Shown here: positions 3,001 to 6,000 of the stretch, piece by piece
Position numbering within the stretch: the stretch's first letter is position 1
Layout: each line of letters starts with the position of its first letter
Virus record (IMG/VR): IMGVR_UViG_2529292905_000001
Length of the DNA: 7,960 nt
Source: a virus
Lineage: Monodnaviria; Loebvirae; Hofneiviricota; Faserviricetes; Tubulavirales; Inoviridae
Direction: 5' to 3' (one strand)
Made by a program: the position numbers

Positions 3001-6000
3001 TTTCAGGGTGCGTAAAATGACGATGTTCAGCAATAAATGATTTCTTCTCAGCCGTCATATCCTTATCGCTACCGAAGATTCGCCATGCTTCATCAATAAC
3101 AATTAAATCACCAAACTGGCAAAAGCTCCCTTCCCCACCTTTAAAAGGAAAGAAATCTGCTTTAAGCACATCATCATTATCCACAACAATAATTTCTCCC
3201 GTTGCATCAGGATAACGTTCGGTGATTTTATCTTTTTGTAAACCATAAATGTTCGTCACAACTCTCCGGCCGCTGGTAAATGCCGGAATAATGACATTGC
3301 AAACGGCTTCATAACTTTTTCCTGAGCCGGGTATGCCAATATATGCAGAAATAGCCATAACTCACCCTATAACAGGAATACGTCGAATAATAAAACGAGT
3401 AGCCATTGCGGAGATAATCATACTAATCCCCTGTGGTAATTTACTCAGGTTAATGAAGTACCAGAATCCGTCTGATAAATTGGCAAACAGCGATGAGAGA
3501 TTGCTTGAATCTGGCAGTAACTCAACAAGGATTTCAACGAAGCCCTGGACTACAAAATACAGCGCAAAGAATACGACGAATTTAATAATCAATGACCGGA
3601 ATACAAAACCTAACAAAGTATTTAATGCACTAATCAGAATCCCAAACATAGTTGCACTCCTTTAGGCACTCAGAATAATACGGAGCGCAACAAATCCCCA
3701 TATAATCAGAAATATGGTTTCTACGGCGCTTCTGTTCTGCTCAATTAACGGACAATGGGAGTCAATTCTGTACTGGTGATTAAACACGCTGAATTCAACA
3801 ACGGGGCAGGATGCTGAACGAGAGCCGATGTTAAATTCGTTTGTAAAAGGCAACAAGTTAATAATTGGCGTTAAAATATCTCTTGCCGTTGGCGTTTCTT
3901 CAAGCTCAGGCTCTTTTACACCGGGATCTTCTCCCAAATCTATATTGCCATTATTTCCAGTGTCAGATCCTGAGTTGTTATTAATGGTAATATCAATATT
4001 GACGTCAGCCCCTGCACTGTCAGATACAGGTGAAAGCATATCTAATAACGTTGGAGATAGCCTAAGTTCCGACATCGCAGAAGTTACTTCAGCCGGTGAA
4101 ACCTCTTTAAACGGTAAGCCGTTATAATCGGCATTAACGGCAGCTTCAGACCACAGCTCGTTAATCATGTCGGCAAGAAGTGCTGGCGATACACTAACAC
4201 TATCAAGATACTCCAGATAATCAATCATGGACTCAATATTTCCGGCCTCCAGTACTTCCGTCATGGCTTTATATTTGGTATTGGTCCAGATAGTAAGCTC
4301 ACTCTTTTCATCAATATCTTTTGCGGTGTAATCCTCTTTTTCAGGAACGGCGCAAATCGTCGAATATCCACCATTTGACTGATTAGTCGTTTTACAAGGC
4401 GTGTTGTGATACTGATATTGCTTGCCTGCTGTTAAATAAGCAACGCTGTAATACATGGGAAGCCCTGCTACATTTTCATACATGGGAATACCTGCGGGAA
4501 ATGAAGATGCGGCCGGGTTGCTATACAAGTGTGTAATCTCAGGTATTTCATAAAATGAGGAAGGATAAGTAAACTTATAATTCTGTTCAGTAAAGGATAC
4601 ATCTCCATTACTGTTGACAACTTTATTCGTCACAGTGCGTTCAAAATTCGTTAGTGTTTCAGTATAAGTACGCGAGTTATAGTCATTAAGATAATTTCTG
4701 GCAATTTCAGTTGGATTATCACCATAGTAATAAATTAGCTCTTTCGAATCCTGATAATAATAAAGTGCATTATCTGGCGTGGAATATCCTGTTTCAACAC
4801 CTACAACTGGAGAACCCGCATCCACATTATTACGACTAACATGAAGGATTACCGGACTTAATTCCTGTGGTTCAGAATTAACGGTTATCGTCTTACTTTC
4901 ACCACTTTGACCACTGTACGTTACTTCATATAAATTATCGGAAATCTTTTTACCGTTAGTCATTACCATTACCGAGCCGTCAGATGAACTCAAAGAAGAC
5001 GGAACAAAAGATGATACAGCAGCAGCAATACCCGCCCACGTTGCGACACCGCTCATTTTGTATGATGAGGCAGCAGGCAAGTATTCGGCAGCATTAGCCG
5101 CAGCTCGGCCAACAAAAACACGGGTTGCTGTAAGCTGTGATGCCGTATAAATCGCATCATTGGCAGCAAAGCGACGAACAAGCACCCGGCCAACGACTTT
5201 AGGAATAACAGCCCGCGCAGCCACTGCTGCAATTGCTGGTACAAATGAATATGAATATCGGGGAAAGGAAACCCAGAGAAAGGAAAAAATAAAGGAATAA
5301 ACCGTCAGCCTCTTAGCCCAAGAATAACGACATAAGCTGAGACGATCCCCCATAAAAGGGAACCCAATTTCCATAATTCAATCTCCATAATAACCTCAAG
5401 TAAAACGGGCGATATTGCATCGCCCATGAATAATGAATTTATGCGGATTTAACGGTACGCAATACCCAGCGAACGCCAGCGACACCGGCATAAAGTGTTA
5501 CCAGTGAAGCAGCAACGGCCATAATCGCAACCAGAACTGTACTGAAATCAATGCTGTTCGTCAGCGGCGATAAATCAACACCACTTGATGCCGCTCCTTC
5601 TGCAGCGAAAGTCGCGCTAGAAACAGCCATTAATGCAGGTACAGCCAGAAAACTAACGATTTTTTTAAACATAACTCTATCTCCATTACATTTTAAAGGT
5701 TCGCATTCAAGCAGTACGAACCATCTTTATTACCTGTCCCACACCTACAGAAAAAAGCCAGAGCAGCAGGACAGAGCCAAAACCTAATGTCCAGTAATTT
5801 CCCATTGCAGAATAATCAATTTGATGAAATGGTTCAGAACGTACCATTATTGCCTGACATTCTTTTGCATTGTTCGCATTACATAAATAACCTTCAATAC
5901 GGTAACCATTTTCAGGAATATGATTATCAAACTGAATATCGAAACCTGATGTATCCATAATCAGCCTTTTATTTCAGTAATGCCGCCATCTGATGAAATG

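Follow-up and report, generated by a model that had tools for sequence, protein, structure and literature searches.

A conserved hairpin behind the major coat gene of the CUS-1/YpfΦ filamentous prophage as a probable leaky intrinsic terminator

Our results suggest that the hairpin lying directly behind the major coat gene of the CUS-1/YpfΦ (CUS-2) filamentous prophage is probably an intrinsic (Rho-independent) terminator of partial efficiency, that is, an attenuator, which would end the highly expressed gII-gV-orf83-coat block. The sequence analysed here (the window) is the whole 7,960-nt stretch of the IMG/VR virus record IMGVR_UViG_2529292905_000001. It represents this prophage, described in PMC4266046, with the order gII, gV, orf83, coat gene, hairpin, a 27-codon open reading frame (ORF), gIII, gVI, gI and gIV. 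All the phage genes are on the minus strand, the exception being a divergent helix-turn-helix (HTH) repressor-like gene (7514-7960, plus strand).

A stable hairpin follows the major coat gene

The features on which the argument turns are the following:
5672-5439, minus strand: major coat protein gene, 77 aa, with its TAA stop at 5441-5439 (ORF list, PHROG 2186 and homologue names)
5407-5425, minus strand: core hairpin (sequence, RNAfold and comparative pairing)
5398-5406, minus strand: U-rich tail GUUUUACUU, with 6 U in 9 nt (sequence)

The hairpin sits in sense orientation at the end of the coat gene, on the coding strand. Its arms, GGGCGAU (5425-5419) and AUCGCCC (5413-5407), form seven perfect pairs, five of them G-C, around the 5-nt loop GCAAU (5418-5414), and they are followed by GUUUUA at 5406-5401 and then by CUUGAGG. 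An earlier note on this DNA, made from the sequence alone, had described a perfect 7-bp GC-rich stem with a 5-nt loop and GUUUUA behind it, located 14 nt past the coat stop. The description is exact to the base on the minus strand, and so is the distance: a 13-nt spacer, AUUCAUUAUUCAU, separates the stop from the stem, whose first base is the 14th nucleotide after TAA. The same note had taken the upstream gene to be that of the major coat protein. In support of this, the product matches PHROG 2186 ('virion structural protein', E = 1e-28) and its relatives carry the RefSeq name 'major capsid protein'. The protein has a signal peptide and a mature part of ~54 aa, with an acidic N-terminus, a hydrophobic core and basic C-terminal end; its score against Pfam Phage_Coat_B, 20.1 bits, is slightly below the cut-off of 23.5 bits.

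The folding free energy, a check proposed beforehand in the earlier note, was in favour of the structure. RNAfold gave a ΔG of -13.9 kcal/mol for the hairpin in a 38-nt context (z = -3.73), and 0 of 200 dinucleotide shuffles were equally stable. In this fold the stem is lengthened to 10 pairs (5427-5405) by the addition of A5427-U5405, U5426·G5406 and an inner G·U pair, which leaves a 3-nt loop; the hairpin still forms in a 61-nt context. In a scan for perfect-stem hairpins over the 7,960 nt of the coding strand the site ranked fourth in stability; an equally stable hairpin would fall in a given 45-nt slot with a chance of ~0.02. A consensus terminator scan listed the site first (10 pairs, 5 G-C). 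A covariance-model search of Rfam gave no family match at 5380-5440, even at E ≤ 1. The spacer between the coat gene and the next gene, 50 nt, is the longest of an otherwise densely arranged operon (the others measure 2-34 nt), and the spacers among the upstream genes (gII, gV-like and orf83) hold none of the five most stable hairpins of the coding strand.

Pairing is maintained across relatives while the sequence varies

Relatives were obtained by a coat-protein search (homologues down to 59% identity) and by pattern scans of GTDB genomes and IMG/VR, which yielded 46 loci (cited below by L numbers where they have to be told apart). A tblastn search of the phage collection added the saliva inovirus OR148977, with 34% coat identity; megablast and blastn nucleotide searches of the phage collection gave no matches. 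None of these relatives lacks a G+C-rich hairpin behind the coat stop, at a distance of 5-18 nt. It was present 5-17 nt past the stop in 10 of 10 distinct stem variants, which come from E. coli, Yersinia, Klebsiella, Phytobacter, Brenneria, Lelliottia and IMG/VR inoviruses:
Variants 1-5: GGGCGAU/AUCGCCC; GGGCGGC/GUCGCCC; GGGGGG/CCCCCC; GGGGAG/CUCCCC; GGGGC/GCCCC
Variants 6-10: GGGGC/GCCCC (a second one, with a different loop); GGGAGUU/GACUCCC; GGGAGUU/GGCUCCC; GGGGCGU/AUGCCCC; GGAGGGU/GCCCUCC

The saliva inovirus also has a hairpin, AGGGAGG/CCUCCCU, 18 nt past its coat stop. Moreover, the post-coat hairpin ranks between first and sixth on the coding strand of each locus, with a per-locus chance of 0.006-0.04.

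Since MAFFT alignments of the hairpin region failed to bring the stems into structural register, these were anchored at their outermost G-C pair and the pairs counted by script; the counts that follow thus come from an anchored comparison and not from alignment-based tools. Across the 10 variants all the stem positions (64/64) are paired. Native arms pair in 34/34 cases at the inner positions that vary, compared to 52% for arms exchanged between lineages, and compensatory exchanges involving C-G, G-C, A-U and U-A occur at stem positions 3-7. Near-identical copies were inspected from 30 nt before to ~100 nt after the coat stop, and their sole substitutions fall in the loop (G>U in L004 and C>U in L023). 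Since pairing is kept while the sequence varies, and near-identical copies have changed only in the loop, it is the structure and not the sequence that is under selection.

The U-rich tail and the expected read-through

The stems are followed by a T-rich tail. Across 13 lineages, the 8 nt located 3' of the stem contain 65% T, compared to 30% for the coding-strand background (P ~2e-13). Several lineages have textbook forms of a terminator (GGGGAG-UUC-CUCCCC-U7, GGGCGGC-GAAA-GUCGCCC-U5 and AGGGAGG-UUUCUA-CCUCCCU-U5), and A-rich 5' flanks and GNRA loops are present in some. In the window, four consecutive U directly follow the stem if U5426·G5406 is taken as the closing pair, and the tail was accepted by the terminator scan, which asks for at least five T in eight. 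Taken together, the conserved position, the compensatory changes, the T-rich tails and the layout shared with M13 (see below) lend in silico support to what the earlier note had proposed, namely that this is probably a post-coat terminator.

According to this proposal, minus-strand transcripts would begin upstream of gII. Once 5427-5405 has been transcribed, the G+C-rich stem would fold in the exit channel of the RNA polymerase while the weak rU:dA hybrid (UUUU at 5405-5402) occupies the active site, and a fraction of the polymerases would let go of the RNA around 5400-5397. The released RNAs would carry a stable 3' hairpin, which would shield the messages for the coat and the single-stranded DNA (ssDNA)-binding protein from 3' exonucleases, and the polymerases that read through would provide for the 27-aa protein, gIII, gVI, gI and gIV, which are needed in much smaller amounts. 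Note that the formation of RNA 3' ends at the hairpin, and the efficiency of termination, are here predictions made from sequence.

Partial read-through, which the earlier note had also expected, is supported as probable: the U-tract is short and interrupted, and read-through would be required because a conserved ORF starts 16 nt past the extended stem and the promoter scan found no promoter-like site on the minus strand at 5439-4963. The gII, gV-like and orf83 genes belong to the same transcription unit as the coat gene, and gVI, gI/Zot and gIV depend on transcription getting past the hairpin. As indirect evidence, YPO2274-YPO2279, which span the site, are reported to respond jointly to RovA through the promoter region of YPO2274 (PMC4266046). 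Reviews conflict on the effect of RovA on the transcription of the YpfΦ/CUS-2 genes, which it represses according to PMC4266046 and stimulates according to PMC3521224 and PMC3180457. Literature searches found no transcript mapping of CUS-1/YpfΦ.

Several observations weigh against a terminator at this site. The U-tract of the window is short and interrupted (G-UUUU-AC-UU), and a d'Aubenton-Carafa-type score, which is to be read as a relative scale only, is ~-22 for the window compared to +44 for M13 T0.25, the terminator discussed below. This score is ~0 for the window when the U·G pair is counted into the stem, and +21 to +33 for the L005 and L027 variants. With such a tract and such a low score, the efficiency of termination may be low. 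In addition, the consensus terminator scan was not enriched in the window (9 sites vs 7.3±2.9 in shuffles), so the significance of the site must rest on other evidence. Two relatives, L031 and L034, retain the hairpin with just 3 T in the next 8 nt; since they keep the stem without a U-tract, the selected function is not canonical termination alone in every lineage, and termination may not be the only role of the hairpin. Finally, the same hairpin forms in the packaged single-stranded DNA, which makes a role at the DNA level possible.

A bidirectional terminator was also considered and rejected: read on the plus strand the site has no T-tail, and nothing is convergent on it.

A small conserved gene lies between the hairpin and gIII

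The region directly behind the hairpin contains the following features:
5394-5397, minus strand: GAGG Shine-Dalgarno (SD)-like motif, 5 nt (5393-5389) before the ATG of the small ORF
5305-5388, minus strand: 27-codon ORF, MEIELWKLGSLLWGIVSAYVVILGLRG, the first gene after the hairpin (cross-lineage conservation)
3662-5374, minus strand: gIII-like adsorption/minor coat gene, 570 aa (PHROG 3942, E = 5e-252)

The local gene map has to be corrected here: a conserved ORF of 27 aa comes directly behind the hairpin, and gIII probably begins earlier. The gene directly past the hairpin is not gIII but the 27-codon ORF, which is not called in the record of the Prokaryotic Genome Annotation Pipeline (PGAP) that was inspected. 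The ORF is 27 codons long in 12 lineages, and a version of it is present in OR148977, the inovirus with 34% coat identity. It varies at 26/28 third codon positions compared to 13-16/28 at positions 1 and 2, and its amino-acid identity is 57% in frame compared to 29-30% in the other two frames. In L005, L006 and L026 the equivalent of GAGG is AGGUG. The product is hydrophobic, with a WG(L/I)(L/I/V)(C/S)A motif, and has no Pfam or PHROG match; the protein collection contained a 40-aa version only, with no entry of 27-codon length. This longer ORF, which starts at ATG 5427 inside the hairpin and is annotated in some Y. pestis genomes, was rejected: its start is absent from the relatives, whereas ATG 5388 is conserved. 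In size, acidic N-terminus and hydrophobic core the small ORF recalls the Ff tip proteins g7p/g9p, a likeness that goes no further than resemblance. A statement in a recent preprint has gVII/gIX absent from other integrative filamentous phages.

The gIII gene most likely starts at ATG 5374, as judged from the GGAG at 5386-5383 upstream and from the conservation of this ATG in L005, L006 and L026. The small ORF and gIII share 70 nt, read in different frames. The more distant relatives begin gIII at an ATG located within the small ORF (MRLG...), and a clear signal peptide comes next. PGAP places the gIII start at GTG 5224, which would delete the predicted gIII signal peptide.

Comparison with the Ff phages and φX174

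In the Ff phages (M13, f1 and fd) the frequently transcribed gII-gVIII region is bounded by the terminator T0.25, and the resulting RNAs share a protected 3' end. A passage of PMC1693883 puts T0.25 at the end of M13 gene 8; literature searches returned this mention of T0.25 and no detailed transcription map of Ff. In the M13 GenBank record the gene VIII stop is followed by 20 nt, the hairpin GGCUCC-UUUU-GGAGCC, U8, GGAG (SD) and the gene III start. The window has the same layout, the hairpin separating the major coat gene from the minor-coat and assembly genes (gIII-gVI-gI-gIV). In both cases the stop and the stem are a short distance apart (13 nt here, 20 nt in M13); the G+C-rich stem of 6-7 bp, with a loop of 4-5 nt, is followed by a U-run, which is weak in the window, and then directly by an SD and the next start. 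The presumed role is also alike, that of parting a frequently from an infrequently transcribed block.

There are also differences. The two sites have no sequence similarity, and M13 has U8 where the window has G-U4-AC-UU, the window site being probably much leakier. Behind the hairpin of the window comes a 27-codon ORF that overlaps gIII; the small genes of Ff, g7 and g9, are instead located upstream of the coat gene. Moreover, CUS-1/YpfΦ is temperate, integrated at dif and provided with a repressor.

The same principle is seen in another small ssDNA phage. In φX174, according to a passage of PMC9135205, partial read-through of intrinsic terminators steps down the transcripts along the structural genes and sets the stoichiometry of the virion proteins. 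This phage differs in virus family and gene order, and it uses serial terminators, in contrast to the one such site found in the operon of the window.

A terminator at the post-coat site is expected biology and not a surprise, and this kind of element is already known. If our reading is correct, the hairpin would set the ratio of thousands of copies of the coat and ssDNA-binding proteins to a handful of tip and assembly proteins, in a prophage with links to the virulence of E. coli K1 and of pandemic Y. pestis. The transcription plan of Ff would then reach the dif-integrating temperate inoviruses, and the hairpin would offer a defined site to mutate for studying or engineering phage production.

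Alternative roles of the hairpin

Another possibility could be that the hairpin is an RNA stability or processing element, which blocks 3'-5' exonucleases after a downstream endonucleolytic cleavage and raises the half-life of the coat mRNA, read-through being near-complete. Such a role would agree with the weak U-tract of the window, with the stem kept in L031 and L034, and with the situation in Ff, whose mRNAs are processed into stable species with a common 3' end. However, an exonuclease barrier needs no U-rich tail, and most lineages have one directly 3' of the stem, including canonical U5-U7. We regard this explanation as rather unlikely; note that the roles of exonuclease barrier and terminator are mutually compatible.

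We see a small chance that the hairpin is multifunctional, combining attenuation either with an SD-AUG bridge for the 27-codon ORF or with service as a packaging hairpin that would be recognised jointly with the neighbouring g7p-like protein of 27 aa. Each of these second roles would explain why the stem is kept in L031 and L034, which have no U-tract. In the bridging form, read-through transcripts could be translatable only with the terminator stem folded.

Control of translation of the small ORF and gIII, in which the hairpin would set the access of ribosomes to the start codons just downstream, appears improbable as the explanation. Eight of the 10 stem variants have no SD between the hairpin and the AUG; in those eight, the stem is directly preceded by a purine-rich motif (such as UAAGGUAA, AAAGGAUA or GGGAG) and followed after 5-10 nt by the AUG. 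A variant of this idea is that the stem could bridge an SD-like AAGG on its 5' side to the AUG on its 3' side, an arrangement known from T4 gene 38 with its split ribosome-binding site, and such a bridged site may exist in those relatives, judging from the arrangement of these motifs. In the window and in the L005 clade, however, the SD (GAGG and AGGUG, respectively) is found past the hairpin, and the sequence before the hairpin holds nothing SD-like. Since the hairpin is kept there, its common function must be independent of SD bridging. Moreover, the stem leaves the SD and AUG of the window unsequestered.

By locus, an SD-like purine motif occurs within the 8 nt located 5' of the hairpin in L027-L029, L031-L034, L036, L040, L030 and L007.

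That the element is not an RNA element at all but an ssDNA signal, for example a packaging signal recognised when assembly starts, is in our opinion very improbable. The Xanthomonas integrative filamentous phages use G+C-rich DNA hairpins of 20-26 nt for packaging (bioRxiv 10.1101/2023.12.30.573655), and the post-coat hairpin resembles those of the φLf family in being a short (~20-26 nt), G+C-rich plus-strand hairpin in an integrative inovirus. It is also stable when folded as DNA (-8.2 kcal/mol, z = -3.9), and it adjoins the small, g7p-like hydrophobic ORF. However, known packaging signals conserve both stem and loop, and such conservation was not found here. The loops (GCAAU, GAAA, AUUU, UUC, UAAC, GUAACA and others) and the inner stems vary freely, even among fairly close relatives. 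Hairpins of the φLf family are found next to the origin or within gII, in one case within a gIII homologue; their stem consensus is conserved and their loop is C/T, whereas the hairpin of the window is post-coat, has a T-rich tail and varies in sequence with the pairing kept. A packaging role would leave the T-rich 3' tail and the post-coat position unexplained, and the longer imperfect inverted repeats in non-coding DNA (639-682 and 7412-7468) are more conventional candidates for origin or packaging functions.

Finally, a chance inverted repeat without function, which the lack of excess of the terminator scan over shuffled sequence might suggest, has next to no probability and is effectively refuted by the comparative data, since the hairpin is present at the same position in every lineage with differing, compensated stems and a low per-locus chance.

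Other features of the prophage

The window is 99.2-99.7% identical, among the matches listed, to a prophage found in 98 complete E. coli genomes. UTI89 and NU14 are among the carriers, and there are often at least two prophage copies per genome. The coat gene of the window is 99% identical to two Yersinia pestis loci (YpfΦ). In L001 (E. coli CUWW06, 3358-13960) the prophage is tandemly repeated, as it is in many other genomes, with 2-5 places per genome; in L001 it adjoins ydeR-type fimbrial genes. Positions 1-96 of the window are host sequence, the end of a fimbrial chaperone gene, and the match to the window starts at position 94 or position 190, depending on the genome.

The remaining genes of the operon are:
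7342-6290, minus strand: gII replication protein (Pfam Phage_CRI and G2P_X_C; PHROGs)
6278-5961, minus strand: gV-like ssDNA-binding protein (Pfam Putative_G5P, PF17426; PHROGs)
5958-5707, minus strand: orf83, 83-aa membrane protein (PHROGs)
3649-3362, minus strand: gVI (Pfam DUF2523; PHROGs)
3358-2333, minus strand: gI/Zot (Pfam Zot; PHROGs)
2333-1089, minus strand: gIV secretin (Pfam Secretin; PHROGs)

Four further repeats or stems were observed outside the post-coat region. Between gII and the HTH repressor-like gene lies an imperfect palindrome (7412-7468), with 27-nt arms that are 81% complementary and a 3-nt spacer. The best promoter-like site for gII (7498-7471, minus strand) overlaps with this large palindrome, which is likely an operator/promoter or origin element; its weak Rfam match to mir-230 is meaningless. 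Downstream of gIV, an inverted repeat at 639-682 has 21-nt arms, 81% complementary, and a 2-nt spacer. The only ORFs that it overlaps are short and unsupported, and PGAP calls none of these; the repeat is a candidate packaging signal, origin or attP region.

The other two are on the minus strand. At 349-371, a 7-bp G+C-rich stem (GGCCUGA/UCAGGCC) encloses a 9-nt loop in which the last phage ORF (358-606) has its stop codon (360-358); this hairpin is among the most stable of the coding strand and has a weak T tail. At 1006-1035, a terminator-like, A+U-rich stem of 12 pairs lies 54 nt past the gIV stop. The next ORF (ATG at 1000) has its Shine-Dalgarno motif, AGAGGA, within the 3' arm, and this stem may serve for translational masking rather than termination.

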